This document shows, piece after piece, positions 2,498 through 48,783 of a DNA stretch of 64,000 nt (positions are counted from its first letter, which is position 1; every line of letters starts with the position of its first letter). The position numbers were made by a program, and so were the translations under genes. The DNA lies in NCBI GenBank assembly GCA_965243205.1, contig CBDEUK010000002.1, forward strand, positions 1,472,001 through 1,536,000. The letters run 5' to 3'. The notes under the pieces were generated by a model. It ran no database searches. It saw nothing but the letters and a program-made list of their open reading frames with translations, and was not told the DNA's origin. This DNA is from Gammaproteobacteria bacterium. Its GTDB lineage: Bacteria > Pseudomonadota > Gammaproteobacteria > Eutrophobiales > Eutrophobiaceae.

Positions 2498-2971
2498 TTA
2501 ACGCTGACGACATTGAGAACATAAACCATTAATCTCTAGTGACATGGTCTCGTATTGAAAATCCATTTTTTTTGTCATTGATTGAATCTTTTGTTGTATT
2601 TCAGAGCTACCTAATTCAGCAACCGATCCACATTCCTGACAAATTAAGAACTGGCATTGATGAGACTGGGTCGGATCAGAACACCCAAGGTAAGCATTTA
2701 GTGATTCAATTTTATGTACCAAGCCTAAAGCCTGTAAAAAATCCAAAGCTCGATAAACCGTTGGAGGTGCCGAAGACGAATGGACTTTTTTCAATTTGGC
2801 TAATAAATCATAGGCCTTCATCGGCTCGTGACTAGCCCATATAAACTCCAAAACTGTTTGTCTCAATGGCGTTAATCGTTCGCCGTGTGACTTACAAATG
2901 CTCTTGGCGTGCTCCAAAGCTGTCTTCTGGCAAGTTTTATGGTTATGGTGTTGAAATGAGATCGAAGTCAT
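2498..2971 (-). CDS. zur: Zinc uptake regulator (Fur family)
   Basis: PPTVYRALDFL, two CxxC motifs, heads znu operon. Confidence 0.9.
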   Translation of the reverse strand: MTSISFQHHNHKTCQKTALEHAKSICKSHGERLTPLRQTVLEFIWASHEPMKAYDLLAKLKKVHSSSAPPTVYRALDFLQALGLVHKIESLNAYLGCSDPTQSHQCQFLICQECGSVAELGSSEIQQKIQSMTKKMDFQYETMSLEINGLCSQCRQR

Positions 2972-2994
2972 CGGTAAAATTCAATTTAAATTAG

Positions 2995-3009
2995 TGTTAT
3001 AATATAACA
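2995..3009. promoter_or_regulatory. Zur box
   Basis: TGTTAT-AAT-ATAACA palindrome matching the proteobacterial Zur consensus, directly upstream of zur. Confidence 0.85.
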
Positions 3010-3106
3010 GTCTTGGCTAGAATAAAATATGATGGCATTTTAGCTTGAAAATCTCTGCTAAAATAACCATCTAACATTCAAGTAGTTATCCAATAAAAAA
3101 TAACGT

Positions 3107-3376
3107 ATGGCCGAACAACAGCAAAACTCCGAAGAAATTACTGTCTATCTTGATGCGAAAGGACTGAATTGCCCGTTACCTATACTGAAGTCTAAATTAG
3201 AGCTCAATAAAATGCACGCTGGAGAGATCTTATTTGTCGAATCAACCGATCCACATTCTAAGATCGATTTTGAAGCCTATTGCGCACGTACAGGGCATGA
3301 AATTCTTCAGTACAAAGATTCAGATGGTGTTTTTTGTTTTACGATTAAACGGACTGAAAACCCCAAGAAAATTTAA
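3107..3376 (+). CDS. tusA: TusA/SirA family sulfur carrier
   Basis: LDAKGLNCPLPIL (CPxP) motif, TDP motif. Confidence 0.85.
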   Translation: MAEQQQNSEEITVYLDAKGLNCPLPILKSKLELNKMHAGEILFVESTDPHSKIDFEAYCARTGHEILQYKDSDGVFCFTIKRTENPKKI

Positions 3377-8639: not shown

Positions 8640-10172
8640 TCAAGCGTACTTGTTGTGTTCAACCGTAATATTTCGGTGACCAGCACCTAATTTAAACTCT
8701 TCAATCACTTCGAGCACATCTGGATCCATATGACGAGTTTGACTGCTATCAATCGTTACATATGAACCATCAGGCACATGGCCTAATGCGTCTACAACAG
8801 ACGCTCGACTAAAGAAGCTGACTTCATCTGAAAAATTTAATGTGACTTGATGAGTATGATCAGGTAATTCATGATCTTCAATTCGATATTCAAAAGAGTT
8901 CATGAAATTACGACGTAAGATCATAAACACTGCGATGAACAACCCAAACGCAATACCTATTAATAAATCTGTAAATACAATGCCTAAGATAGTAGCAATA
9001 AAAGGTAAGAACTGATCCATGCCCGCTTTGTATAAACCAGTAAAAATTTCTGGCTTAGCAAGTTTGTACCCAACCACAAATAAAATACTGGCTAACACTG
9101 ATAGCGGAATAAGATTTAAAACGTGTGGCAATATCAAAACGAAAACTAATAAAAACACACCATGCATAATCGCAGAAAGTTTAGTTCTAGCATTCGATTG
9201 AATGTTTGCTGAGCTTCGAACGATCACTTGTGTAATTGGTAAACCACCGATTAAACCTGATGTACAATTTCCAACACCTTGTGCAAATAACTCACGGTTT
9301 GTAGGCGTAACACGTTTTAAAGGATCTAATTTATCAGTCGCTTCAACACATAATAATGTTTCTAAACTTGCAACGACAGCAAAGGTAATTGCAGTAATAA
9401 TAACTGCAGAATCCATTGCTCTACTCCAATCAGGAAATACTAAAAGATCTTTTATTCCTGATAACCCGTCTATTACTGGCACACTCACTAAATGTTGTTG
9501 TTTTAATGCAAGTTCAGGAAAGTAGCGTGATGTTATGATTTGAAATAAGATTCCGAAAACAACTGCTACCAAAGGACCTTGAATTAATTTAAAGACAGCT
9601 GATTTTTTTACTAAAACGATTTCCCATAATAAAAGAATCGCAATACTAACCAGTGAAACAATGATTGCTGCAAACTGATAATCGAACAACATTAACGTCA
9701 TAGATGTAAATGTGTTTTCACCATCAGGTTGTATGAATGCCAATTGGCCTTCTGGAATGGAATCGTAACCAATCGCATGTGGGATTTGTTTTAAGATAAT
9801 GATAATACCAATACCCGCTAACATGCCTTTAATCACGGACGAAGGAAAAAAGTAAGCTATGAAACCACCGCGTGCTAAACCAAAAGCAATTTGAATTAAT
9901 CCCGCTAATACAACTGACATTAAAAAGGCTTCGAAACCTAATTTATCAATGGCTGCTAGAACGATAACGGCAAGTCCAGCAGCAGGGCCTGATACACCAA
10001 GCTGTGATCCACTTAAACTACCAACAACAATCCCACCAACAATACCCGCAATTAAACCTGAGAACAGTGGAGCGCCACTGGCTAAAGCGATACCTAAACA
10101 TAATGGTACAGCAACAAAAAATACAACAATACTAGCAGGGAGATCACTTCTAAGGTTTTTAATCAGATTCAT
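8640..10172 (-). CDS. SulP/SLC26 anion (likely bicarbonate) transporter
   Basis: VAVPLCLGIALASG, GVSGPAAGL, NRELFAQG, IVRSSAN; C-term STAS-like; directly downstream of carbonic anhydrase. Confidence 0.9.
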   Translation of the reverse strand: MNLIKNLRSDLPASIVVFFVAVPLCLGIALASGAPLFSGLIAGIVGGIVVGSLSGSQLGVSGPAAGLAVIVLAAIDKLGFEAFLMSVVLAGLIQIAFGLARGGFIAYFFPSSVIKGMLAGIGIIIILKQIPHAIGYDSIPEGQLAFIQPDGENTFTSMTLMLFDYQFAAIIVSLVSIAILLLWEIVLVKKSAVFKLIQGPLVAVVFGILFQIITSRYFPELALKQQHLVSVPVIDGLSGIKDLLVFPDWSRAMDSAVIITAITFAVVASLETLLCVEATDKLDPLKRVTPTNRELFAQGVGNCTSGLIGGLPITQVIVRSSANIQSNARTKLSAIMHGVFLLVFVLILPHVLNLIPLSVLASILFVVGYKLAKPEIFTGLYKAGMDQFLPFIATILGIVFTDLLIGIAFGLFIAVFMILRRNFMNSFEYRIEDHELPDHTHQVTLNFSDEVSFFSRASVVDALGHVPDGSYVTIDSSQTRHMDPDVLEVIEEFKLGAGHRNITVEHNKYA

Positions 10173-10200
10173 GGCAAAGATTACTTATAGTGTTTTGTTT

Positions 10201-10234
10201 AAACAAAACAGCTTCTACATAACAAGAAGCTGTT
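10201..10234 (-). terminator. Intercistronic hairpin/terminator between carbonic anhydrase and sulP
   Basis: AACAGCTTCT/AGAAGCTGTT 10-bp stem followed by a T-rich run on the minus strand. Confidence 0.55.
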
Positions 10235-10258
10235 CATTAAAATTAGTGTAAATGGAAA

Positions 10259-10882
10259 TTAAAGATCGAAAGAAACTTGACCAGTAGATAACTCATGTAT
10301 ACCACCAACTAACATGATCTCATTGTTATCAAGCATTTCTTTAATGATAGTACTGCGCTCACTAATTTCTTTCATAGCTCTCTTTACATTAATGACAGTG
10401 ACTTTCTGCACGAAGTCATCATTTGCAGCACAACGATTATCTTGAACCGTTTCTTCGTCATCTACTGCCGGACGAATTTTGGTTAGCAACGCAGTTAAAT
10501 TACCCATCTCAACATGATCACATGCACCTTTAACAGCGCCGCATTGGGTATGGCCTAATACAACAATAATTTTCGAACCGGCTACCTTACAGGCAAATTC
10601 CATACTACCTAGAATATCCTCATTAATGATGTTTCCAGCGATACGCACACTAAAGATATCACCCAAGCCTTGGTCAAAAATTAACTCCGCAGAAGTTCTT
10701 GAATCAATGCAACTTAAAATTACAGCGAATGGATGTTGACCATCCGATGTTTCATTTGCTTGTTCAAGTAAGTTTCGATTGGCTTTAAGATTGCTGATGA
10801 AACGCTTATTTCCATCTTTCAATAAACTGAAAGCCATATCGGGGGTGATTTTATCCTGCATCTCTTTGGTTAATGTTTTCAT
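10259..10882 (-). CDS. Beta-class carbonic anhydrase
   Basis: CIDSR, RIAGN, HTQCGA zinc-ligand motifs. Confidence 0.93.
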   Translation of the reverse strand: MKTLTKEMQDKITPDMAFSLLKDGNKRFISNLKANRNLLEQANETSDGQHPFAVILSCIDSRTSAELIFDQGLGDIFSVRIAGNIINEDILGSMEFACKVAGSKIIVVLGHTQCGAVKGACDHVEMGNLTALLTKIRPAVDDEETVQDNRCAANDDFVQKVTVINVKRAMKEISERSTIIKEMLDNNEIMLVGGIHELSTGQVSFDL

Positions 10883-11109
10883 TTATGAACGCCTTACCTG
10901 TTAATGTATTCTTTATGCCATTGATTTAATTAAGAAAAAAAGACAACGTTTTTTTCTTATACTCTAAATATTAATTTTTAAACGGCGAATTTTCAATCTA
11001 AATAAGATTAATTGTTTTTAAGAATTGACGGCGAATATGCAAACTTAAATAAGGTGATTATGTTTGCAAGATGCAAGCAAAATTGAAAATTATAGGTAGT
11101 TCTATAAGA

Positions 11110-11262
11110 AACTGATTTAATTGAATCTTACATCCTTGAGACATTCCTTGTTGATTCAATCAAACCACAAAATCGATATATTTCCCAAAACCTATCCTTA
11201 AATGAGCCATCGATATAAGTATTAATTTTATCGGCAATCCACATAAAGTCCTTGATAGTACT
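11110..11262 (-). ncRNA. Candidate CsrB/Rsm-like sRNA (or CsrA-target leader); boundaries approximate
   Basis: Six GGA motifs within 11133-11251 on the minus strand, including ACA-AGGAA-TGT and CAAGGATGT enclosed by a TTGAATC/GATTCAA stem. Confidence 0.45.
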
Positions 11263-11369
11263 TTAGTAGTAATTATGAATTTAGCTCTATCTAAGGAAAA
11301 TTTCCCATAAAAAAACCGAGGACGTATACATGAGTATGCATTTATGAGTTAAAGGAAAATGCTTACGTG

Positions 11370-12032
11370 TTAAGAGTAATTATTATCCGCTAATAATTGT
11401 TGAATGTTACTTTGAGTTTTTTGAACAAACCAACATTGACCATCTTGATCAAAATAATCGCTGGTTAGAAAGATAGAATTATCTAAATATTTTTCTAATC
11501 GAACAGCTGCCATTTTTGTCCATTCTTTCCATTCGACATTTTTGTTATAGAGTAAGTTATATTCTTCTAATAACCTGACACTGGTTTGTTTAAATTCGCT
11601 ATAGTCTGAGGCCAAACCAAATAAGTCACTATTCTTTACAAGCTTATCCTCATTCGAAACACAGGCTGCATCTTGATGGGTACTATTAATCGCTTGCTTC
11701 ACTTGCTCTATAAAAGCCTCTGAAAAATCATGCTGTCGCAATACTTCCTCAGCTAAATACGCAGAATAGGATTCTTTGGTCAGAAAACCTTTGCTTTTAT
11801 TATCTTCCTGATATCCCGCATCGTGAAATAAGATGGCATAAAACACGACGTCCATATCCACGGCAATCTGTTCTTGTTGGCATTTTTCTAACAATTTTTC
11901 TGAAGCAGAAAGCACATCATGGACATGATTAAAATTATGGTAGGGCAAACGAGAATCGTACAATGCTTCTGCAGCATCGATAATCGCTTGTCTGTTTTCG
12001 ACTAGCATGAGATTACTTTTTTGGGGCTCCAT
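11370..12032 (-). CDS. HD-superfamily metal-dependent phosphohydrolase
   Basis: LPYHNFNH...LFHDAGY...T...SDL motifs. Confidence 0.75.
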   Translation of the reverse strand: MEPQKSNLMLVENRQAIIDAAEALYDSRLPYHNFNHVHDVLSASEKLLEKCQQEQIAVDMDVVFYAILFHDAGYQEDNKSKGFLTKESYSAYLAEEVLRQHDFSEAFIEQVKQAINSTHQDAACVSNEDKLVKNSDLFGLASDYSEFKQTSVRLLEEYNLLYNKNVEWKEWTKMAAVRLEKYLDNSIFLTSDYFDQDGQCWFVQKTQSNIQQLLADNNYS

Positions 12033-37923: not shown

Positions 37924-38202
37924 TTATAGATTACAAAGAAAGGTTGCGCAAACCGCAAACATAGATAATCACGAGCTTCTACTAAGACAAAATCCGGAAA
38001 AACTAAAAGATTAAATTTTTCTAAACTGGAATAGAATCAAGCCTATATATGAATAAGCGAGTAACAGAACAGTATTTGCTTTCATACACTAACCTCTGCA
38101 TTATTGCGGTGATAAAAATAACTTGCCATCTTATCCCGGTCATCCTTCTTATACCGTTTTCCGGTTTATTCTGGCATCGAATAACAAATACAGGAGCCTG
38201 AG

Positions 38203-38688
38203 ATGCAACTTGGTAAAAATAAAGTTGGAATTATTCAATACACCTTGAAAGATGATAATGATGAAATCCTTGATCAATCCGATGAAAATGGATTTACATA
38301 TCTACACGATGCACAAAACCTAATTCCTGGTTTAGAAAGAGAACTAGATGGTAAACAAAAAGGCGATACCTTATCAGTCACTGTAAAACCAGAAGATGCT
38401 TATGGTGAACGTCAGTTAGAGGCGATTCAAACTGTTCCTCGTGAATTATTCCCCTCCGATCAAGAACTCGAAGTCGGCATGTCATTCCATGGAGAAGCTG
38501 AAGACGGCCACCCTATGATAGTAACAGTAACTGCTGTCGAAGCTGATAAAGTCACTATCGATGGTAATCATCCCCTTGCCGGCCAAACCTTACATTTTGA
38601 TGTGGCAATACTAGACGTACGAGATGCAACAGAAGAAGAACTAACGCATGGTCATGTTCACGGACATGATGGAAATGAAGAACACTAA
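38203..38688 (+). CDS. slyD: FKBP-type PPIase SlyD
   Basis: LIPGLE, PEDAYG, DGNHPLAG.TLHFDV, EELTHGHVHG. Confidence 0.93.
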   Translation: MQLGKNKVGIIQYTLKDDNDEILDQSDENGFTYLHDAQNLIPGLERELDGKQKGDTLSVTVKPEDAYGERQLEAIQTVPRELFPSDQELEVGMSFHGEAEDGHPMIVTVTAVEADKVTIDGNHPLAGQTLHFDVAILDVRDATEEELTHGHVHGHDGNEEH

Positions 38689-39377
38689 AACCTGTTAATT
38701 GAAATAGATCTAAACAGAATTACAAGAAAGCATAAGATTAAGAATATAAATGGAATTGGTACTTGTTTTGGAGAGGAAAATTCGACTACTACCTTTGGCC
38801 CAAGAAAAACTTGGCTAGTGCTTTGGAAACCATTCGCACGTATTTCATCATCAAAAGTATTCGATTGATTACCTTCTGAAGCAACTCTTAGATTTAATCC
38901 GAGTATTGATTCGTTTGAATCTAATAGACTTTGCATATAGCTAGTTATATCAACTATTAACGGTTCACTAAGGCTGTTCACATGAAATGATACTAATAAT
39001 ATATCACCAGCATCTGCATCAGTTAAATTCATCATGCCATCTCCAATGTAACCACGAAACTCTAGAGTTGGAGAATCACCTTTTTTAGTAGGGAAAAGCT
39101 GTATATTTGCTTGGTCAATTATTGCTCCTTCAGGAATGTTACTCAAATCGATTTCCAAAGCAGAACGGTAGGCATGCCGTTGACTCAAAAAATTAATATT
39201 ACGCCACCAGACTATAATAGAGGATAATGAAGCAACACTGGTAAATACTCCATCTCCATCAGAGTCATAAAAACTTGCATTAGCTATAACAGGTACTTCA
39301 AGTGTTTCTGCTGTAACGGTATTTGAGATCGCGCTACTTAATAGAGCTACTATTAAAAAGAATTTTAAAAACGTCAT
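38685..39377 (-). CDS. Exported protein with DNRLRE/CBM96-like segment and PEP-CTERM-like C-terminal anchor
   Basis: Signal peptide; RSALEIDLSNIPEGAIIDQANIQL; C-term VPIP + hydrophobic helix + basic tail. Confidence 0.55.
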   Translation of the reverse strand: MTFLKFFLIVALLSSAISNTVTAETLEVPVIANASFYDSDGDGVFTSVASLSSIIVWWRNINFLSQRHAYRSALEIDLSNIPEGAIIDQANIQLFPTKKGDSPTLEFRGYIGDGMMNLTDADAGDILLVSFHVNSLSEPLIVDITSYMQSLLDSNESILGLNLRVASEGNQSNTFDDEIRANGFQSTSQVFLGPKVVVEFSSPKQVPIPFIFLILCFLVILFRSISINRF

Positions 39378-39429
39378 TGCATATCCTTATCAGTAAACAA
39401 ATTTTACTATCTCACGTTATTCTATAGAA

Positions 39430-41220
39430 TTAATAAACATCTCTTACATATCGTTTAAGCTTTTTAAGCTCTGAAATATAAGCCTCAGCTTGAGTATCAT
39501 TCATATTGCCATGTTCTTTGACGATATTAAACAAAGCTTTATCAACATCTTTCGCCATATATAAAGCATCACCACAAACATAAAAGTATCCGCCACGTTG
39601 TAACCAGTTAAATAGCTCTGCACCGTTTTCCATCATGCGATCTTGTACATAGATTTTTTGTTCTTGATCACGAGAAAAGGCTAAGTCTAAACGCGTTAAA
39701 ACACCATCGGCTTGCATAGCTTCGATTTCATCTTGATACAGGTAATCAGTTTTACTATTACGATCACCAAAGAATAACCAATTATCACCTTTAGCATCAC
39801 GAGCTTGACGTTCTTCTAAGAATGCTCTGAAAGGAGCGATACCTGTACCTGGACCAACCATAATCATAGGCAGTTCATCATCGCTTGGTACTGCAAAATT
39901 TTTATTGGGTGAAAAATAACATTTTACCTTACTATTAAGGTCGGCAACGTCGGCTAGATATGTTGATGCAACACCATTATGTTCTCGATCATTTGAATTA
40001 TAACGAACACTACTCACAGTTAAATGCACTTCTTCTGGATGAGCATTGATACTTGATGAAATAGAGTACGCTCTTGGCGCTAAGCTTTTACAAAGATTAC
40101 AAAACTCTTCCGCATTTAAGTTCGCTGGGTATGTTTTTAATAAATCCACACAATCTTTGCCCCAAAGAAAATCATTTAAGGCTTCAGCATCATCATTTTC
40201 TAATAAACGATTAAGTTCTGCATCGCCATTACGCTTTGCTAATTCGTTTAGTAGTTCTTTAGAAGGTGTTCGAATTTCTAATTGCTCAGTCAGTAGCTCA
40301 CCTAATTTATAATTATCGCCTTTCCAATTAACACTATCATCGGCTTTTGCATTAATAAGTTCTAAAATTTCTTCTACCAAATCAGGACGATTAGTACTGA
40401 TGATGTTTAACGCATCACCTGCTTCATAACTTTCACCACTACCCGCCAAAGAAAATTCATAATGTAAAACTTCTTTGCTTGAACCCTCTTGGTTTAATAA
40501 TCGTTTTGTAATGAGTTCCGCTTCTAATGGATTCTTACGATTGTATTTAGATTTGGCTTTTTTCGGAGCAGAACTTGTCGTTGTTACTGGTGCGGTTACT
40601 TCTGAACCTTTTTCAGCAATGGTAGGAACCGCTTGATTAATCCATTCCTCTGCAGGAGTATCATAATCGATGTCGCAATCAATACGATCCGCTATACGAG
40701 TTGCTCCAAGTTTTTCTAAACGCTGATCCCATTCTTTACCCGCTAAACAAAAATCATCATAGTTAGTATCACCTAAGGCCAACACTGAAAAGAAAGTGTT
40801 TTCTAAACGTGGTGCACCATCTTCACTAATTGCATCCCATAAAGCTTGCGCGTTATCTGGCATTTCGCCTTCACCATAAGTACTGGTTACAACAAGCAAG
40901 CGTTCTATATTCGGTAAATCAGCGATATCAACATCATCCATATCGATAACATTTGGCGATAAGCCATTTTCTCTCGCGACTTCAGCGGCATCTTCTGCGA
41001 CACCTTCGGCATTACCAGTTTGTGTACCGTATAAAATAGTAATTGGTTTTTGCGCTTGTACTTCACCCGCTGATTGTGGTGATGCTAATAAACGTGTTTG
41101 AAGACCTGCAAGAAAACCACTTAGCCATTGTTTTTGATCATCATTAAACGGTAAGTCTGCAGGTAAATAGGAAACGGGGTTCGAATCGCCGTTAATATTA
41201 TTGTTTATATTTTTACTCAT
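39430..41220 (-). CDS. CysJ-like diflavin (FMN/FAD/NADPH) reductase
   Basis: YGTQTGNAE, TSTYGEGE, PRAYSISS, GPGTGIAPFR, FFGDR, YVCGDA, RDVY end. Confidence 0.9.
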   Translation of the reverse strand: MSKNINNNINGDSNPVSYLPADLPFNDDQKQWLSGFLAGLQTRLLASPQSAGEVQAQKPITILYGTQTGNAEGVAEDAAEVARENGLSPNVIDMDDVDIADLPNIERLLVVTSTYGEGEMPDNAQALWDAISEDGAPRLENTFFSVLALGDTNYDDFCLAGKEWDQRLEKLGATRIADRIDCDIDYDTPAEEWINQAVPTIAEKGSEVTAPVTTTSSAPKKAKSKYNRKNPLEAELITKRLLNQEGSSKEVLHYEFSLAGSGESYEAGDALNIISTNRPDLVEEILELINAKADDSVNWKGDNYKLGELLTEQLEIRTPSKELLNELAKRNGDAELNRLLENDDAEALNDFLWGKDCVDLLKTYPANLNAEEFCNLCKSLAPRAYSISSSINAHPEEVHLTVSSVRYNSNDREHNGVASTYLADVADLNSKVKCYFSPNKNFAVPSDDELPMIMVGPGTGIAPFRAFLEERQARDAKGDNWLFFGDRNSKTDYLYQDEIEAMQADGVLTRLDLAFSRDQEQKIYVQDRMMENGAELFNWLQRGGYFYVCGDALYMAKDVDKALFNIVKEHGNMNDTQAEAYISELKKLKRYVRDVY

Positions 41221-41263
41221 CCACTCTTTCTCAAACGCAACAGGTTATAGCCTGCTTTTATTA

Positions 41264-44200
41264 TTATGCAGCGCGGCCGACAACTTCGGCCAACAACTGA
41301 GTATATTGTCCCGCAAGCGCTTGTTCGAGCGAAGGATAGGACGCTAGTTCTTTTAAGTTATCGCGGTCACGAGCTATGATCCAAACCCCCGTTCCCCATG
41401 CGCGCATATCCCATACTTCACGCATGGCTAAGGATTCTTTGTAATCACGTACACGTTTATCCGCTAATAAAGATGCTAAGGCCTCATCACTGTAACTCGC
41501 TAAAGCTTCTTTAACATCTTTAAATAATTGTTCTAATAATTTACGGTCTTCAGTTTCAATTAGATGACGAGCCACTTCGTCTTTATCCACTAAACCGTTT
41601 TTCACTAAGTCTGACTTTTCAGAAACTTCCAATGCTCGACGTAATACACCCATCGCATTCACATACTGACAGACTAAATCACTTGAGCTTTCGCCATAAG
41701 CAGGTACTTGGCCTGAGAACATATGACGATTGTTTTTATAAGCTTCTGCAACACGACGTAAATGCCATAAGCCCCAACCATGTGATAACTCTTCTAACAA
41801 AGCTTTGCGATCAGATTTTTCTAAGATGGCGTCACTGCAATGATAGTTATATAAAGCTCGAGGAATTAATACATAGAAATGTTGACGGCTTTCATCCCAA
41901 TTTTCTAACAAGGATTTAGCTAATGGGGAACGTGTATGTTGAATGTGTCGTTCTAGATACATGCGCAATGCCATTTCTTGACCACGCATAAGCTCAGAAT
42001 CTTCATCCATCTTGGTTACTAATACAGAATCTTGGCTACAACGTTCTGCGATTAAGGCTTTTGGATCGTATTGATAAGCAACACCACCACTCATACCATT
42101 ACCAAAACCTTTACCATAGGAACCTAAATTAACAATGGCGCCATTGGTCATATATTCACAACAGAAATCGCCCACACCTTCAACAACTGAAACAGCACCT
42201 GAATTACGTACTCCAAAACGGTCGCCCGCCTGGCCTTGTACAAACAGTTCTCCACCTGTTGCACCAAATAATGCAAAGTTACCAACTAAAACATTGGCTT
42301 CGTCTTCGTCACTTCCGCCACCAGGGTTGGTAATAACAATACGGCCACCACTACAACCTTTACCGACACCGTCATTACATGTGCCTTTATGGTACAAACT
42401 AATACCTGAATTATTAAACGCACCAAAGCTTTGACCAGCAGAATTATGAGTATTCACCCGGATACTATCTTCTCGTAACACTAAACGACCGTTTTCTAAC
42501 ATATCAACAGCAGGATGATTTAAACGCTGTTCATCGCTCATGTTGTAGTTAAGATGACGCTCAATATCAATCGAGAACTGACCGCCAGTGGTTTTATTTT
42601 TATTGTTTAGACGTGGACCTTCAATTTCAATGTTATTTAATGATTGCTCAAAAAAACGTTTATACGCTTCTTCGACATACGCATCGTCAGGTTCAAAGTT
42701 CGCTTCTAGTGCAACTGCATTTGGTACATCCATAACATCAGGCATGCGTAACATAGCACTCATGTCTAATTGACCATTCATTGTTGGATGATTGATCAAA
42801 TGTAATAAATCACTACGTCCACGAATTTCGCATAAAGATGAGTAACCAATACTGGCTAGGATCTCACGTACTTCATGTGCAAGGTTGATGTAATACTGAG
42901 CTAAAGCACGGGGGTCGCCTTTATAGACTTCAGGATTTGTAGTTAAACCGGCAGGACACTTCACATTGCAGTTCTTTGCCATGACACACTTCAACATCAT
43001 TAATGATGTCGTACCGAATTCATATGAGTCACCACCTAACATGGCAGACTTTATTACATCGTATCCAGTTTGATGCGCGTTAGAACAACGTAAGATAACT
43101 TTTTCACGCAATCCATTTTCGGCTAAGGCTTTATGTACTTCTGCAATACCAATCTCTGCTGCACGACCTGAATTTTTCAAACTGGTGACTTGTGCAGCGC
43201 CCGTTCCACCTGTGCTACCTGCAATGTTAATCACATCAGCACCGGCTTTAGCCACACCCACAGCGATCGTTCCAACACCTTCAGATGAAACTAATTTAAC
43301 AATAACGCGAACACGCGCAGCTTTTGCATCATGGATTAACTGGCCTAAATCTTCGATTGAATAAGTATCATGATGAGGAGGTGGAGAAACTAACTCAACA
43401 CCTGGAGTACCACCACGAGCTGCTGCAATCTCAACATTAACTTTTGCCGATGGCAATTGACCACCTTCACCTGGCTTAGCACCTTGAGCAATTTTAATTT
43501 CGATTTCTTCTAGTTTTGGATCGGCTAAATATCCAACCCAAACACCAAATCGACCTGATGCAAATTGTTTAATCTTACTCGCACGAATGGTGTTATAGCG
43601 TTTTGAATTTTCACCACCCTCACCACAGTTACTCATCGCACCAACAATATTAGTGCCTTGAGCTACTGCTTCATGTGCTTTCGCAACTAAAGCACCATGA
43701 CTCATCGCACCTGAAGCAAATGTTTTAGTAATTTCATGCGCGGGTTGAATAACATCGATAGATAAGGCATCAGGTACTTGAATAATATTTTGTAGAAAGG
43801 CTGCTGCTGTTCCTTGCGCAGTCACAGAAAGCTTTGAGCCATCAACTTTGATATTAGTTATTTCAGAACCAAAAAGCTTTGATAAAGCATCACTGAATGC
43901 TTTAGTGCGTGATTCTTGAGAATCCGATAACTCTAAAAGAAAAGAATCAGAATTCTTTGTAACGTTTAGACCTTGAATTGCGTACGAAATATTTCCTTGT
44001 AAAGAAACACCGTTTAATTTTTCAGTAAATTCTTCAACATTATTACAACCATTCAAAGAGATCGGTAACGATAAAACATCGCGCAAAGTAGATGGTCTTA
44101 AATCACGTTCAGCATAGATTTCTTTTATGAACTGACGATAGGCCGGAGTAACAGTAAAGTTATCGATTTGATCTGGCGTGCATGCTTCATAACCCATCTT

Positions 44201-46684
44201 ACGATAACCAATATCTTGTGGTATGCGTAGTGGATGTTCAGCTTCAGGATTTTCTGCGTATTCGATTTGCTCTTCGGTCATATGAGTGAATTCGCGTACG
44301 GCTACAGTACCGAAGGTATGACCTGCACCATCTGAACGTTCTTTAAATAAACCTAATAAAGGAATATCACTTTCGCTTTGGATTACTAAGGCTTTTTGAT
44401 GCCAGTCAGCCGCACTTTTAGCAATATCAGAAAAACGTGAACCACCAACTGGCGAATTAATGTTTGGCAATATCTTTTTAAGTATGGGTTCTTCGGTATC
44501 GATAAAATTGCCTTCAAAGAATTCACCGCCGATATAGCTTTCAGCTGTACAAAGGCCAAATTTACCCATCGTTTTCATTAAGGCTTTTTCTACTGCTTTT
44601 TGAAAATTATCTAATCCTTTTTGAACAGTTTCAGCCTCGTTATATAATTCTAACGCGCGATAGTAAACCGTTAACGGACAAACGGCAGATGCACCAAAAC
44701 CAATTATACAAGCTATATCATGTGTACTCGATGCTTGTCCTGTCTCACAAATCAAACTAGAGTAAAATCTTAACCCTTGTTTGATCAAACGTTGATTAGC
44801 TGCAGAAGTGACTAATATAGCAGGTAATGCAGCAAGCTCTTCAGATACGTTCTTATCGCTTAAAACAATAACGCCATGACCATCACGAGAAAGTTGTTCT
44901 ACTTTGTCACAAACCGTTTCTACTGCGTTTAATAAACTTTCTTCGTTAAGCTTACTATTATTAAAATCAGGCTTATAAAGAATATCAACTGTTGCTACAT
45001 TTAATATATTTTGTTTATAAATTTGCAGTAACTGTTGTGGTTGTATAATAGGTGATGGGATAACTAACTGACGAGTTGAGCCATCACTGAAATTTGGTTT
45101 GCGACCTAAAGAGACACGTAAAGTCATGCCATCCGCTTCACGAATACTATCCAAAGGTGGGTTAGTCACTTGTGCAAATCGTTGGCTAAAATAACGCGAC
45201 ATACCACCTTCATCTTCAGTCAATGCATTCGGTGCTATGCCATAACCCATTGCAGAAATCTTTTCCGCGCCGTTTTGTAGCATTGGATCGAGCATGAATT
45301 TAAAACTTTCTTGATTCATGCTGTATGCAACATGGCGTGCGGCAGAATTAAAATTAGAAACTTCTTCAACCTCAGTGAGTTCAGCGTTAGGTAAATCAGC
45401 AAGATCTATATGAGCATCTTTTAACAGCTGACTATAATCTTTTTCTTTTGCTAAACGTTCTAATGTATCGTTGGTATATTCAACTTGTTTTCGAGCATGA
45501 TCGAATATCACCATACCACCAGCTTCAATACGACCACGACGGAGAATGCTCTCAGGTGGAAAATCTATTTGGCCAGCTTCACTCATTACTGCTAAGTATT
45601 CATTGGTTTCGACACTACGTAATGGTCGTAATCCTAATCGATCCAAACGAGCGCCCACTATGACACCATCACTGAAAATTATCGCAGCAGGACCATCATT
45701 CTTCTCTTCTGAAAGACTGAAATATTCCAACATGTCACGAACATCATCGGTAATACGCAAATCATTTTCCCATGCAGGTGGCATCATCATTAATGCAGCA
45801 GCATCAATTTGTAACTCATCTTCGACGACTCGACGCGCCATAGTCTGATCCAAACGTGCTGAATCTGATTGGCCTTTTGGAAAAATCACACGCTTATCAT
45901 GTGAACGAGCGATTGCGTCTTCGCTTAAACGGTTTTTACGATCAGTATTTAATTCGCCATTATGTGCAAGCCTTCTAAAAGGTTGTGCAAACATAGGATT
46001 TGGAGCGGTATTGGTCGAAAAGCGAGTATGAAAAAATAAAGTATGAATTTTATGTTCAGGATTATTCAAGTCTTGGAAATAGGGTACGACTTCCCAACTA
46101 TTGAGTTGGCCCTTTAATACCTGTGTACGAGAACTCATAGATAAAGGATAAAAACCATCAAGCTCTGGCTGAGTAAACGCAGGTTTTTCAATTTCTTCTA
46201 CTGCATTATGCAGCAACATTTCAAAATCGTTTTGATGAGAAACAGAATTTGGCTTTGCAAAAATAACTTGATGAATGACTAATTGAGCGGCCGCGCTTTT
46301 TTCATTGAGGGCATCAGGATTAACTTCTACATCTCGCCATAAGATTATTTCTAAATCGTATTTTTCAAAGACTTCACGGATAATTCTTTCAGCGACTTTA
46401 TGTTGAGCTTTATCGCGTGGATAGAAAAAGTTAGCGACACCAAACTCACCAAGCTCTAATGTACCATCGTCTGTAAGATGACGGAAAAAATTCAAAGACA
46501 GATCAACATTAACACCCGCACCATCGCCGATACCTTCAGCACTGAACCCTCCACGATGAGGAATTTTGCACAAAGCTTGATGCACGTGCTCTAAAAGCTC
46601 ATGGGTTTGTTTACTTTGTTTGTGGGTAATAAAGCCAACGCCACAACTTGAGTAATCTAAATCTGGGTCAAATAACTGTCTCAT
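41264..46684 (-). CDS. gltB: Glutamate synthase large subunit homolog (divergent, extended)
   Basis: CGVGF, HTRFSTNT, AHNGELNT, FAQVTNPP, ASGRFGV, GAKPGEGGQLP, SPPPHHD, GXGXG domain (AGDRFGVRNSG, CEYMTNG). Confidence 0.85.
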   Translation of the reverse strand: MRQLFDPDLDYSSCGVGFITHKQSKQTHELLEHVHQALCKIPHRGGFSAEGIGDGAGVNVDLSLNFFRHLTDDGTLELGEFGVANFFYPRDKAQHKVAERIIREVFEKYDLEIILWRDVEVNPDALNEKSAAAQLVIHQVIFAKPNSVSHQNDFEMLLHNAVEEIEKPAFTQPELDGFYPLSMSSRTQVLKGQLNSWEVVPYFQDLNNPEHKIHTLFFHTRFSTNTAPNPMFAQPFRRLAHNGELNTDRKNRLSEDAIARSHDKRVIFPKGQSDSARLDQTMARRVVEDELQIDAAALMMMPPAWENDLRITDDVRDMLEYFSLSEEKNDGPAAIIFSDGVIVGARLDRLGLRPLRSVETNEYLAVMSEAGQIDFPPESILRRGRIEAGGMVIFDHARKQVEYTNDTLERLAKEKDYSQLLKDAHIDLADLPNAELTEVEEVSNFNSAARHVAYSMNQESFKFMLDPMLQNGAEKISAMGYGIAPNALTEDEGGMSRYFSQRFAQVTNPPLDSIREADGMTLRVSLGRKPNFSDGSTRQLVIPSPIIQPQQLLQIYKQNILNVATVDILYKPDFNNSKLNEESLLNAVETVCDKVEQLSRDGHGVIVLSDKNVSEELAALPAILVTSAANQRLIKQGLRFYSSLICETGQASSTHDIACIIGFGASAVCPLTVYYRALELYNEAETVQKGLDNFQKAVEKALMKTMGKFGLCTAESYIGGEFFEGNFIDTEEPILKKILPNINSPVGGSRFSDIAKSAADWHQKALVIQSESDIPLLGLFKERSDGAGHTFGTVAVREFTHMTEEQIEYAENPEAEHPLRIPQDIGYRKMGYEACTPDQIDNFTVTPAYRQFIKEIYAERDLRPSTLRDVLSLPISLNGCNNVEEFTEKLNGVSLQGNISYAIQGLNVTKNSDSFLLELSDSQESRTKAFSDALSKLFGSEITNIKVDGSKLSVTAQGTAAAFLQNIIQVPDALSIDVIQPAHEITKTFASGAMSHGALVAKAHEAVAQGTNIVGAMSNCGEGGENSKRYNTIRASKIKQFASGRFGVWVGYLADPKLEEIEIKIAQGAKPGEGGQLPSAKVNVEIAAARGGTPGVELVSPPPHHDTYSIEDLGQLIHDAKAARVRVIVKLVSSEGVGTIAVGVAKAGADVINIAGSTGGTGAAQVTSLKNSGRAAEIGIAEVHKALAENGLREKVILRCSNAHQTGYDVIKSAMLGGDSYEFGTTSLMMLKCVMAKNCNVKCPAGLTTNPEVYKGDPRALAQYYINLAHEVREILASIGYSSLCEIRGRSDLLHLINHPTMNGQLDMSAMLRMPDVMDVPNAVALEANFEPDDAYVEEAYKRFFEQSLNNIEIEGPRLNNKNKTTGGQFSIDIERHLNYNMSDEQRLNHPAVDMLENGRLVLREDSIRVNTHNSAGQSFGAFNNSGISLYHKGTCNDGVGKGCSGGRIVITNPGGGSDEDEANVLVGNFALFGATGGELFVQGQAGDRFGVRNSGAVSVVEGVGDFCCEYMTNGAIVNLGSYGKGFGNGMSGGVAYQYDPKALIAERCSQDSVLVTKMDEDSELMRGQEMALRMYLERHIQHTRSPLAKSLLENWDESRQHFYVLIPRALYNYHCSDAILEKSDRKALLEELSHGWGLWHLRRVAEAYKNNRHMFSGQVPAYGESSSDLVCQYVNAMGVLRRALEVSEKSDLVKNGLVDKDEVARHLIETEDRKLLEQLFKDVKEALASYSDEALASLLADKRVRDYKESLAMREVWDMRAWGTGVWIIARDRDNLKELASYPSLEQALAGQYTQLLAEVVGRAA

Positions 46685-46853
46685 TCGCTGTCTACATCTG
46701 TCTTTTAGGAGTACCAGTCAAAATTCATGCCCTGATTTTGAGGCTAGCATCCCTTATAGCTACTTGTTGTAACTCTCTCGTTGGAATGGAAAAACTTAAG
46801 ATTGCCGAACTGAACAGGCAAACCGATAACAACCCGAGCCACACTAATAGCTA

Positions 46854-46866
46854 TAACTTATTGATT
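46854..46866 (-). promoter_or_regulatory. Putative IHF site upstream of gltB
   Basis: AATCAATAAGTTA on the minus strand matches WATCAANNNNTTR. Confidence 0.4.
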
Positions 46867-47070
46867 TTAATAATAATTATTTTCCACTAATAAAAGTGGG
46901 CCGACGATTATAATCAATCTTGGTATCTGTTGTCACTGAGTATAGCACAGTAATTGTTGCAACGAACAAAACTGATTATTCTGATTAAGACAATTAGCAT
47001 CTATTTTATAGATTTTTGTAGAATTTAAGAGAAGTTAAAAGAAGATAAGCATATTCGTTTTTCATGCATT

Positions 47071-48783
47071 TCAACGAAGATCTCGTTGTATAGTCTCTAT
47101 TTTTCTTGGCCACGGTTTAAGTTCACGCAAAACGGAGGGTAAAGAAGGGATTGCCGCTACGGCTTGGTCACGATTAGTATATTTACCATAGACCAAAACG
47201 TACCAGATTTTATTTTGATTCACGGTAGTAAATTTTGCGATTTGCTGCTTGTTACTAATATTTTTTGCAATGAATTTATTCATCGCCTCATCATCATAGG
47301 CTCCCATCAATTGCAATACATAATGATTTGGAGATTGTTGTTTTAACCAATCAGCCCCTCTGATTGTTTGATTTCCACCGCTAGACACTTTCACTTCAAT
47401 AGGCTGAGGTTTTGTTGGCTTAACTTCTGGAAGTGAAGATTGTTCTGACTCTACTTCTGAGATAATTTTTTTCTCAAATGATTCTGATGAAACGATTTCT
47501 TTTTCAGTTGGCTTATTAATTGGGTCAAGCTGGTTAGGTAATATTTCTTGTATAAATTGATCGTTTTTATCTGATTCTTTATTTTCTTTGTTTACTACCT
47601 GTTCTTCTGGCTTTATTTCTTTTAAACCAGTTGTTTTATTTTCACTCTCTACTTGTTTTTCGACCTGAGCTTCTTCATCTATTTCAGTTTCACCAGGATC
47701 TTTATCGGCTACTTTATTATCTGTCTCATAAATAATTTCTCCTTCTTTATTTAATAAAACTATCTCTGGCTCTTCTGTTATTTGTGATATGTCTTTTTGC
47801 AAATCAGTTGGATTTTCCTTTTCTATATCATCTTCTTTACTTTCTACTGAATATTCTTCTGGTGTGTCTTGATTAGGCAATGAAATCTCTTTTGTTTGCA
47901 ACTTACTTTCATTTTCATCAACTTCTGTTTCTAATATATAAAGAACAAAAACAGAGACCAGGACTAACGCTATAGGCAGGGTAATCTTTGGATTTAATGC
48001 ATAAGTATAAAGCTGTTCGAACCAACTTGTTGAATTTGTTTTTATTGCAGGATCTTGTAAAGCCTTACTTGCCAAATCATTAATTAAACCAGGCAAACCA
48101 TTCGACGCTTTGTGAATACCTTTAATTTGTTTTTCACTGATTACTTGTTCACCTTGATAACCTGAAGTCATTAATCTATGTGCTATATACATTGAAACTT
48201 GATCTTCGTCATACAATGGCATTTCAAGCGTGTGAATAAATCCAAGGTTTCGATGATTAATTAATTGTGCAATATTCGTTTCGGAAAATAAAACAACATG
48301 TAATGCAGGTTTATTATTTTTTGTAATTGCCAGTTCAAATAATAATTTTAAAATTTCAATCGATAAATAATGTGCGTCATCAATAAATAAGACAGGGATA
48401 TAACCTTTTATTTGCATTTCTTCAAAAGCATCATGTAATACTGATACTTTACTTGCATAAGATTCCAATTCACGATATTCAAGTTGTTGATCAATAAATA
48501 TTTGTTTAAAAAAATCATCAACTGTATTGATATCATTAAACGATAAACGACAAAGATGCCATTTCTCATCTCGTGTTGATACAAGATGAGAAAGTAATGT
48601 TGTTTTACCCGCACCTTCTTCACCGAGAAGAACTATAATACGATCACTGAATTCTATTAGATGCTTAATTAACTCGATACGATGTTCAAGTTCAGGTATT
48701 TCAAAAAACTCCTTTTGATCATTCACATCAGAAAAAGGATTTTTTTCTAAACCATAATGATTGAAATATTGATCGTCAGCCAC
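47071..48783 (-). CDS. DamX-like protein: ExeA-type AAA domain, TM, acidic linker, SPOR domain
   Basis: GEEGAGKTT, FIDDAH, HYVLQLMG...WYVLVYG.Y...PWPR; position after aroB-dgt. Confidence 0.8.
   Translation of the reverse strand: MADDQYFNHYGLEKNPFSDVNDQKEFFEIPELEHRIELIKHLIEFSDRIIVLLGEEGAGKTTLLSHLVSTRDEKWHLCRLSFNDINTVDDFFKQIFIDQQLEYRELESYASKVSVLHDAFEEMQIKGYIPVLFIDDAHYLSIEILKLLFELAITKNNKPALHVVLFSETNIAQLINHRNLGFIHTLEMPLYDEDQVSMYIAHRLMTSGYQGEQVISEKQIKGIHKASNGLPGLINDLASKALQDPAIKTNSTSWFEQLYTYALNPKITLPIALVLVSVFVLYILETEVDENESKLQTKEISLPNQDTPEEYSVESKEDDIEKENPTDLQKDISQITEEPEIVLLNKEGEIIYETDNKVADKDPGETEIDEEAQVEKQVESENKTTGLKEIKPEEQVVNKENKESDKNDQFIQEILPNQLDPINKPTEKEIVSSESFEKKIISEVESEQSSLPEVKPTKPQPIEVKVSSGGNQTIRGADWLKQQSPNHYVLQLMGAYDDEAMNKFIAKNISNKQQIAKFTTVNQNKIWYVLVYGKYTNRDQAVAAIPSLPSVLRELKPWPRKIETIQRDLR

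Follow-up and report, generated by a model that had tools for sequence, protein, structure and literature searches.

Textbook glutamate synthases are of three kinds: the NAD(P)H-dependent GltBD, the ferredoxin-dependent GltS (Fd-GltS) and the eukaryotic fused NADH-dependent form. Here we describe a gene pair from a stretch of 64,000 nucleotides of a gammaproteobacterial genome (hereafter the window; contig CBDEUK010000002.1, our C2:1472001-1536000), in which a gene for an oversized glutamate synthase large subunit (GltB) is followed by a gene for a CysJ-like diflavin reductase. Sequence comparison makes it very probable that the pair encodes a two-subunit NADPH-dependent glutamate synthase in which the reductase replaces the iron-sulphur (Fe-S) flavoprotein GltD.

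With GltBD, as known from Azospirillum brasilense, E. coli and B. subtilis (GltAB; PDB 6s6s, 2vdc, 7mfm), the long GltB shares the same four domains, the N-terminal nucleophile (Ntn) cysteine, the FMN site and three putative cluster cysteines; NADPH is the probable donor, as in GltBD, and the pair lies at the genomic position of relatives' gltBD. Unlike GltBD, it has no subunit with FAD and two [4Fe-4S] clusters, because there is no GltD here, and the partner is instead an FMN/FAD diflavin reductase. The large subunit also departs from the canonical one in its inserts, its extension of ~175 aa, its x5/x3 cysteine spacing and its identity to canonical GltB of only 30–40%.

Like Fd-GltS (Synechocystis GlsF; PDB 1llw, 1ofd), the system would pass single electrons from a small redox domain into a [3Fe-4S] cluster, with the flavodoxin-like domain acting as the ferredoxin. 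It has no counterpart of the Fd-GltS segment at ~915-938, however, and its donor domain belongs to a dedicated NADPH reductase, adjacent or fused, rather than to a free carrier. The eukaryotic NADH-glutamate synthase, a GltB-GltD fusion, is a precedent for joining large subunit and reductase in one chain, as in the ~2480-aa Lentisphaera-type proteins described below, although the module fused there is Flavodoxin_1, FAD_binding_1 and NAD_binding_1 and not a GltD-like Fe-S flavoprotein.

The likeness to E. coli CysJ-CysI lies in the CysJ architecture, in a conserved N-terminal segment and in the use of a diflavin reductase to feed a metallo-enzyme of nutrient assimilation; the proposed acceptor is a [3Fe-4S]/FMN enzyme, not a sirohaem/[4Fe-4S] enzyme. 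A CysJ-type module likewise serves as built-in NADPH donor in nitrogen assimilation in the nitrate reductase-CysJ-like fusions named 'bifunctional nitrate reductase/sulfite reductase flavoprotein subunit alpha', which among the matches listed were the next-best longer matches to the reductase (42–52% identity). In contrast to the GltB pair, their acceptor is a molybdopterin enzyme, and the Q..W..G[FY]..G segment of the reductase was absent in 5/5 inspected. These fusions show that CysJ-type modules have been recruited to other assimilatory enzymes. Molybdopterin (nitrate reductase-like)-CysJ fusions form a very large family (P0038-P0154), as close to the reductase as the GltB fusions are.

Pairing, fusion and co-inheritance of the two genes

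Features given below by window coordinates lie on the minus strand. From the open reading frame (ORF) list and translations, the long-form gltB occupies 41264..46684 (1806 aa plus stop) and the reductase gene, with three Pfam domains, 39430..41220 (596 aa plus stop), separated by an intergenic spacer of 43 bp at 41221..41263. ORF coordinates and Pfam domains thereby confirm the starting observation of a first-pass annotation of the window, namely that an FMN/FAD/NADPH reductase of 596 aa is encoded 43 bp beyond a 1806-aa GltB. The coding strand of the spacer was searched for a terminator-like site and none was found, which is compatible with co-transcription of the two genes.

An alignment-based scan for the C-terminal extension of this GltB found it in 192 species genomes, from which 80 loci were kept and inspected; an earlier single-protein scan for such loci had returned no match, and a search of 40 relatives did not find the extension. 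Among 400 sampled Gammaproteobacteria it was present in 3, this genome included. The reductase gene lay directly downstream on the same strand in 78/80 extension loci, and gltD was there in none of those 78, so that the neighbourhood survey proposed in the first-pass annotation comes out on the side of a cysJ-like rather than a gltD neighbour. Nor was the GltB-linked reductase ever next to cysI in the loci seen. The carriers represent many gammaproteobacterial orders and include Bacterioplanoides, Oleiphilaceae, Colwelliaceae, Psychromonas, Marinomonas, Alteromonas, Pseudoalteromonas, Veronia, Vibrio, Piscirickettsiaceae and Hydrogenovibrio. Methylococcales are numerous among them (Methylomonas, Methylomicrobium, Methylotuvimicrobium buryatense 5G), and the pair is also found in Methylophilaceae, in one metagenome-assembled genome (MAG) of Hyphomicrobiales and in MAGs of Bacteroidota. 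Vibrio fluminensis (L062) and Vibrio intestinalis (L063) have canonical gltB-gltD immediately upstream of the long gltB-reductase pair, with both systems in one cluster.

In some genomes the two proteins are one. Six single polypeptides of 2428–2482 aa, two of them from Lentisphaera species, were GltB-reductase fusions among the best 120 longer reductase matches, where they were also top-scoring. The three that were Pfam-scanned have the order GATase_2, central, FMN, GXGXG, Flavodoxin_1, FAD_binding_1, NAD_binding_1, and the other three contain the same seven families by precomputed annotation. In the Lentisphaera profundi fusion, the only one compared directly, the extension stands between GXGXG and the flavodoxin domain and is 31% identical to that of the window; the N-terminal segment of the reductase, itself directly preceded by the extension, stands just before the flavodoxin domain in 6/6. 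Further fused fragments occur among the 83 database matches to the extension. Gene fusion of this kind is a classic signal of partnership, functional as well as physical.

The two genes also share much of their history. In trees made with FastTree only, for which 36 pairs of long GltB and reductase and three fusions, each cut in two, were used, 23/36 splits were common to the GltB and the reductase tree; shuffled labels gave 0.23 on average and 3 at most. The trees cut across taxonomy, with a Bacteroidota row inside gammaproteobacterial rows and the Vibrionaceae split, which indicates transfer of the pair as a unit. Adjacency, fusions, congruent trees and the displacement described in the next section lend strong comparative-genomic support to what the first-pass annotation had proposed, a third wiring of glutamate synthase through a diflavin reductase.

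The same observations bear on a different explanation, that the long GltB is ferredoxin- or flavodoxin-dependent and fed by a free carrier, and that the reductase is a general NADPH:acceptor reductase which shares the operon or regenerates the carrier. Fd-dependent GltS functions as a lone large subunit, the PDB match of the long GltB to Synechocystis Fd-GltS (777 bits) nearly equals that to B. subtilis GltA (819 bits), and one locus (L055) has a long GltB without an adjoining reductase. We nevertheless hold a free carrier to be improbable, in view of the covalent fusions, the adjacency in all but two loci, the congruent trees and the reductase's own flavodoxin-like domain. The Fd-GltS-specific insert is moreover missing from the long GltB: its alignment to Synechocystis Fd-GltS (1llw) skips chain residues 915-938, which we take to be the ferredoxin-loop insert, and by that criterion the long GltB is not of the Fd type.

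Displacement of gltBD and gene content of the genome

The genome comprises 2.79 Mb in 2 contigs and is rated 100% complete. Across it, Fer4_20 (PF14691) gave 0 matches, the best score with the GltD model TIGR01317 was 28.5 bits (cut-off 447.7), and tblastn with a same-genus GltD returned just one weak 92-aa match elsewhere. The absence of gltD, at first noted for the window, thus extends to the whole genome. The first-pass annotation had also raised the possibility of a separate canonical gltBD elsewhere; there is one full-length GltB in the genome, the long form, and with the negative GltD searches this speaks against a second system. As judged from gene content, the GltB-reductase pair is this genome's only glutamate synthase. 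The FMN domain of glutamate synthase also occurs alone, in a 503-aa protein (G000:C2:834430-835398; L002; L014:8317-9828) whose gene adjoins an aldehyde dehydrogenase and an HvfX-family gene; counterparts of 510–528 aa are found in three other carrier genomes.

In G001, a genome of the same genus, the three genes upstream are the same (47–75% identical) and are followed by gltB (1521 aa) and gltD (481 aa); the GltB of G001 is just 30–40% identical to the long form. When loci of relatives were fetched via the HD-domain gene (n=80), 42 had canonical gltB then gltD and none had a cysJ-like gene; in the other 38 the retrieved stretch was without gltB, or had a partial gltB without gltD. Since relatives have gltB-gltD at this position, the pair sits in the ancestral gltBD slot. 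In the trees it groups with Bacterioplanoides and Oleiphilaceae, and its GltB is 74% identical to the Bacterioplanoides protein, a value as high as the best that housekeeping proteins of this genome reach against its own genus, so that horizontal acquisition is likely. The pair was probably acquired here by horizontal transfer as a cassette. One of the 38 loci (L133; MAG UBA6492 contig, 8885-11837) holds, ~6 kb downstream, a partial long-type GltB of 58% identity that ends at the contig edge; judging by this locus, other members of the lineage may have the long GltB too.

The GltB-linked reductase is the genome's sole FAD_binding_1 protein and its sole diflavin reductase. The only proteins of sulfite/nitrite-reductase type are a NirB-like frame (848 aa) and a NirA-like protein (550 aa; G000:C2:1239735-1244021; L004/L006/L013), the latter with a DUF934 gene next to it and ~270 kb from the pair. 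The NirA-like protein falls below every NCBIfam cut-off (TIGR02041, 107 bits against 756.55), and no reductase gene is linked to its locus. Because these are the only two such proteins, there is no canonical CysI for a CysJ to serve. The genome's only NIR_SIR matches, at C2:1.14 Mb and C2:1.24 Mb, fall outside the window, in agreement with the first report that the window lacks cysI.

In 3/5 other carrier genomes checked (Veronia pacifica, Pseudoalteromonas aurantia, Psychromonas aquatilis) a true cysJ (799–849 bits, above the cysJ cut-off of 668) next to cysI is present besides the GltB-linked reductase, which suggests partner-specific reductases. By these matches the GltB-linked reductase is a paralogue distinct from CysJ, and with only a NirA-like sulfite reductase in our genome, the view that it is not the partner of a canonical CysI stands.

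It may still have more than one client. The reductase could be a shared electron hub whose acceptors, besides GltB, include the NirA-like sulfite reductase (with DUF934) or further enzymes, an idea that extends the glutamate synthase assignment and is compatible with it, and to which we give a minor but real chance. It would fit the presence of a single FAD_binding_1 protein in a genome whose NirA-like sulfite reductase has no assigned partner, and such pairings do exist: in Marinomonas sargassi a second CysJ-like gene is immediately 3' of a NirA family gene. The distance between the two loci here, the lack of a linked reductase at the sulfite reductase locus and the separate GltB-linked paralogue kept by carriers of true cysJI tell against it. 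At the Marinomonas sargassi locus (L195, G428:C8:43628-48325) the NirA family protein, directly 5' of the reductase, scores 609 bits with PRK09567 (cut-off 523), and the CysJ-like reductase 510 bits with TIGR01931, below the cut-off; the two may represent another non-canonical diflavin-reductase pairing.

Fifty carrier genomes, our own included, were examined, with G362 and G426 (identical matches) counted once. A full-length GltD-like gene was present in 21/50 and absent from 29/50, the latter including isolates or complete genomes such as Methylomicrobium sp. wino1, M. buryatense 5G, several Methylomonas species, Methylomonas sp. TEB and Methylotuvimicrobium sp. KM1. Where present, the GltD-like gene adjoins a canonical GltB of 1491–1499 aa (3 genomes checked). 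Two GltD-less carriers were checked for further GltB homologues, Methylomicrobium sp. wino1 and a Pseudomonadales MAG, and neither has a full-length GltB besides the long one. In the available portions of two methanotroph genome notes, that of M. album BG8 gives just 'glnA, gltB' for this pathway (PMC3624686) and that of M. buryatense 5G lists glutamate synthase (PMC3695433).

Subunit architecture and a proposed electron path

The long GltB has all four GltB Pfam domains in the usual order (PF00310+PF04898+PF01645+PF01493) and scores 1064 bits with NCBIfam NF008730 (glutamate synthase large subunit), narrowly above the cut-off of 1047. Its start codon is supported by 7 aligned long-form homologues, which open with M-R/K-x-L-F/Y-D. 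The glutamine amidotransferase (Ntn) domain spans aa 14-419 (45428..46645; GATase_2, 311 bits), with the nucleophile Cys14 preceded by a 13-residue leader, and the alignment shows the glutaminase motifs SSCGVGF, HTRFSTNT and AHNGELNT to be conserved. The central domain follows at aa 450-724 (44513..45337; Glu_syn_central, 258 bits) and the FMN/2-oxoglutarate (synthase) domain at aa 970-1281 (42842..43777; Glu_synthase, 332 bits). The latter conserves GEGGE, QGAKPGEGGQLP, R1090, SPPPHHD and GGTGA, as well as K and Q in GAKPGEGGQ; in catalysis we take these motif residues to have the roles assigned to them in Fd-GltS and in the Azospirillum enzyme (Ab-GltS). Alignment with canonical GltB places a putative [3Fe-4S] triad at C1233-x5-C1239-x3-C1243 (42956..42988), and the three cysteines are invariant in 36/36 long forms (positions C454, C460 and C464 of alignment A2). 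The C-terminal beta-helix domain lies at aa 1400-1563 (41996..42487; GXGXG, 183 bits).

Two inserts and a C-terminal extension account for the size of the protein, and the oversize pointed out in the first-pass annotation is real when set against ~1521–1525 aa for canonical GltB. The inserts, at ~aa 797-857 and 877-970 between the central and FMN domains (43775..44296), are present in all 8 aligned long forms and not in the canonical GltB of G001 and G016; the region has ~178 residues, against ~43 in B. subtilis GltA. The family-specific extension covers ~aa 1633-1806 (~175 aa; 41267..41788, from alignments) and has an invariant core of A-x-K-R-x-x-D-Y-K and W-I. Its profile found only 83 matches among 1.84 billion representative proteins, confined to the long-GltB family; all 83 lie at or near the protein C-terminus or have further sequence after the match. 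A Pfam scan of four of them gave the GltB GXGXG domain in three, and Flavodoxin_1 after the match in the two of the four that continue beyond it. Searches for sequence relatives of the inserts and extension gave chance-level matches only, in Pfam (E up to 10; also with the 36 members of alignment A6) and PDB profiles, and the ESM Atlas gave no usable match for the extension region of homologue P0014.

The reductase has the three domains of a diflavin reductase of the CPR/CysJ/MSR type in one chain, with FMN, FAD and NADPH motifs invariant in 36/36. It resembles CysJ most (~40–44% identity to true CysJ), and its scores remain below the family cut-offs, with 637 bits against 668.15 for TIGR01931 (the cysJ equivalog) and 527.5 against 838 for PRK10953. 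A 36-sequence alignment defines a conserved N-terminal segment at aa 19-45 (LPxDxPFNxxQxQWLxGFxAGL; 41086..41166), in which Q29, W32, G35, F36 and G39 are invariant in 36/36. Then come the flavodoxin-like FMN domain (aa 62-186; 40663..41037; Flavodoxin_1, 113 bits) with the conserved loops GTQTGNAE, TSTYGEGEMPDN and LGDTNYDDFC, the FAD-binding domain (aa 227-421; 39958..40542; FAD_binding_1, 100 bits) with RAYSISSS conserved, and the NADPH-binding domain (aa 454-560; 39541..39861; NAD_binding_1, 64 bits). The motifs GPGTGIAPFRAF, AFSRDQ and KIYVQD and the C-terminal RYVRDVY are conserved; going by the CPR/CysJ family, these are presumably markers of NADPH specificity.

In the electron path that we propose, NADPH would reduce the FAD of the reductase, which would hand electrons singly to the FMN of the flavodoxin-like domain. 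This domain would dock on the long GltB and reduce the [3Fe-4S] cluster, which would pass the electrons to the FMN of GltB. There they would reduce 2-iminoglutarate, which 2-oxoglutarate would form with ammonia released by hydrolysis of glutamine at Cys14 and channelled to this site. Both the inserts and the extension may hold the reductase or guide its FMN domain, with the extension proposed as a docking or tethering module; they are candidates for docking because they occur only together with the reductase and border on it in the fusions. That the two proteins form a complex, that electrons move in this order, that NADPH is the donor and that the extra modules play this part we infer from sequence features.

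The conserved motifs also bear on whether the pair makes glutamate at all. It could be a GltB-like amidotransferase/reductase for substrates other than glutamine and 2-oxoglutarate, with glutamate made by glutamate dehydrogenase (GDH). NCBI names many family members just 'glutamate synthase-related protein', the NF008730 cut-off was passed by a narrow margin, the protein has two inserts and an altered cysteine spacing, and a GDH-like gene is present. Against this, the Ntn cysteine, the oxyanion/glutaminase and the FMN/2-oxoglutarate motifs are all kept, the gene is exactly where relatives have gltBD, it is the only full-length GltB in this genome, in Methylomicrobium sp. wino1 and in the Pseudomonadales MAG, and the M. 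album BG8 and M. buryatense 5G genome notes, in the portions available, list glutamate synthase. We therefore think other substrates very unlikely; the first-pass annotation had offered this alternative, and because all the glutaminase and 2-oxoglutarate/FMN motifs are retained it is not favoured.

Several observations weigh against a dedicated two-subunit glutamate synthase and should be set beside it. Two of the 80 extension loci have no adjacent reductase. In one, from a Bacteroidota MAG (L055), a convergent gene follows the long gltB, with 8 kb of downstream sequence; in the other, a MAG contig of 3.4 kb (L066), a DUF4351 ORF (2705-3205) follows where the reductase is expected, and this ORF could be an insertion or an assembly break. 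The C-x5-C-x3-C spacing of the cluster cysteines is one residue shorter than the canonical C-x5-C-x4-C. The genome has a GDH-like gene, so that glutamate synthase is not necessarily the sole route to glutamate, and necessity is no proof of glutamate synthase function. The reductase, as the sole diflavin reductase beside a NirA-like protein to which no donor is assigned, may have other clients. Finally, incompleteness of MAGs may inflate the count of GltD-less carriers, completeness values being at hand for few genomes.

On balance we consider it likely that the pair represents a distinct class of glutamate synthase. The class would be defined by the path NADPH, FAD, FMN, [3Fe-4S], FMN, by 3 Fe rather than 11, and by its two components, a long GltB that brings docking modules of its own and a CysJ-derived reductase dedicated to it. 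The class would travel as a two-gene cassette between phyla, occur as a fusion in Lentisphaera, have displaced gltBD outright in some lineages, be the sole glutamate synthase of methanotrophs such as M. buryatense 5G and serve as a Fur-controlled low-iron isozyme in marine bacteria that keep gltBD. Source annotations name the reductase 'sulfite reductase flavoprotein subunit alpha', 'sulfite reductase subunit alpha', 'diflavin oxidoreductase' or 'hypothetical protein' and the long GltB 'glutamate synthase-related protein' or 'large chain', and none of the names listed ties GltB to the reductase. A full-text literature search found no paper on a GltB-CysJ-type pairing, subscription papers and supplements lying outside the search, so that an earlier description is possible. 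A known enzyme here seems to combine with a dedicated reductase module of another type and with accessory domains peculiar to it, which would make the pair a class not recognised so far.

If this is true, ammonium assimilation would have a new wiring in one of its two central routes, and the annotation of both the reductase and the GltB would need correction family-wide. Gene-reaction assignments and the cofactor and iron costs would change in metabolic models of the GltD-less methanotrophs used in biotechnology. Marine bacteria would offer a concrete example of iron-sparing enzyme replacement, and the pair would be a new natural partner system for recognition between diflavin reductases and their acceptors.

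Iron, upstream sites and neighbouring genes

Replacing GltD would bring the iron atoms needed by each protomer down from 11 to 3. Upstream regions of the marine group have a Fur-box-like site (<=5 mismatches) in 10/24 cases, against 0.66 expected from dinucleotide shuffles, with the common core TAATG-AAAT-ATT. The enrichment is suggestive only, because the upstream regions are related to one another, and the link to the retention of GltD is weak (a site in 7/14 with a GltD-like gene and in 2/8 tested without). The methanotroph-like group shows no enrichment, with Fur-like sites in 1/22 upstream regions against 0.51 expected. A strict sigma-54 consensus was found in none of 65 upstream regions.

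In our genome a weak Fur-box-like site, which departs from the 19-nt consensus at 5 positions, lies upstream of gltB at 46863..46881 (p = 0.025 against dinucleotide shuffles). The non-coding background of the genome has 0.092 such 5-mismatch sites per 350 nt, and the genome's strong Fur-like sites (<=3 mismatches) number 11. Fur control of the pair in this genome was rejected as unsupported, the site occurring at the background rate. The saving of iron offered as a rationale in the first-pass annotation thus fares in two ways. For lineages in which both systems are kept it is a reasonable reading, given the enrichment in marine relatives; in this genome, where the pair would be the housekeeping enzyme, it is unsupported, with the site at background.

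The best sigma-70-like promoter match (GTGACA, 18 nt, TATAAT; 11/12 positions) is at 46907..46936 and is tentative. The region upstream of gltB has 21 such matches against a shuffle mean of 29.1, and since this is fewer than in shuffles the match is a lead only. A scan of 38000-47300 with Rfam gave 0 matches.

Directly 3' of the reductase, at 38685-39377 (-), is a 230-aa ORF whose N-terminus resembles a signal peptide and whose C-terminus has a hydrophobic anchor with basic residues after it. The ORF had no Pfam match and no homologue in either of two sets of 80 loci (160 related loci), and was rejected as a component of the system. Beyond this ORF, the downstream neighbours are an FKBP gene on the opposite strand, a MarR-like gene and cytochrome oxidase subunits. 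The upstream neighbours are a pilQ-like secretin gene, aroK, aroB, the HD-domain gene and an AAA/SPOR gene.

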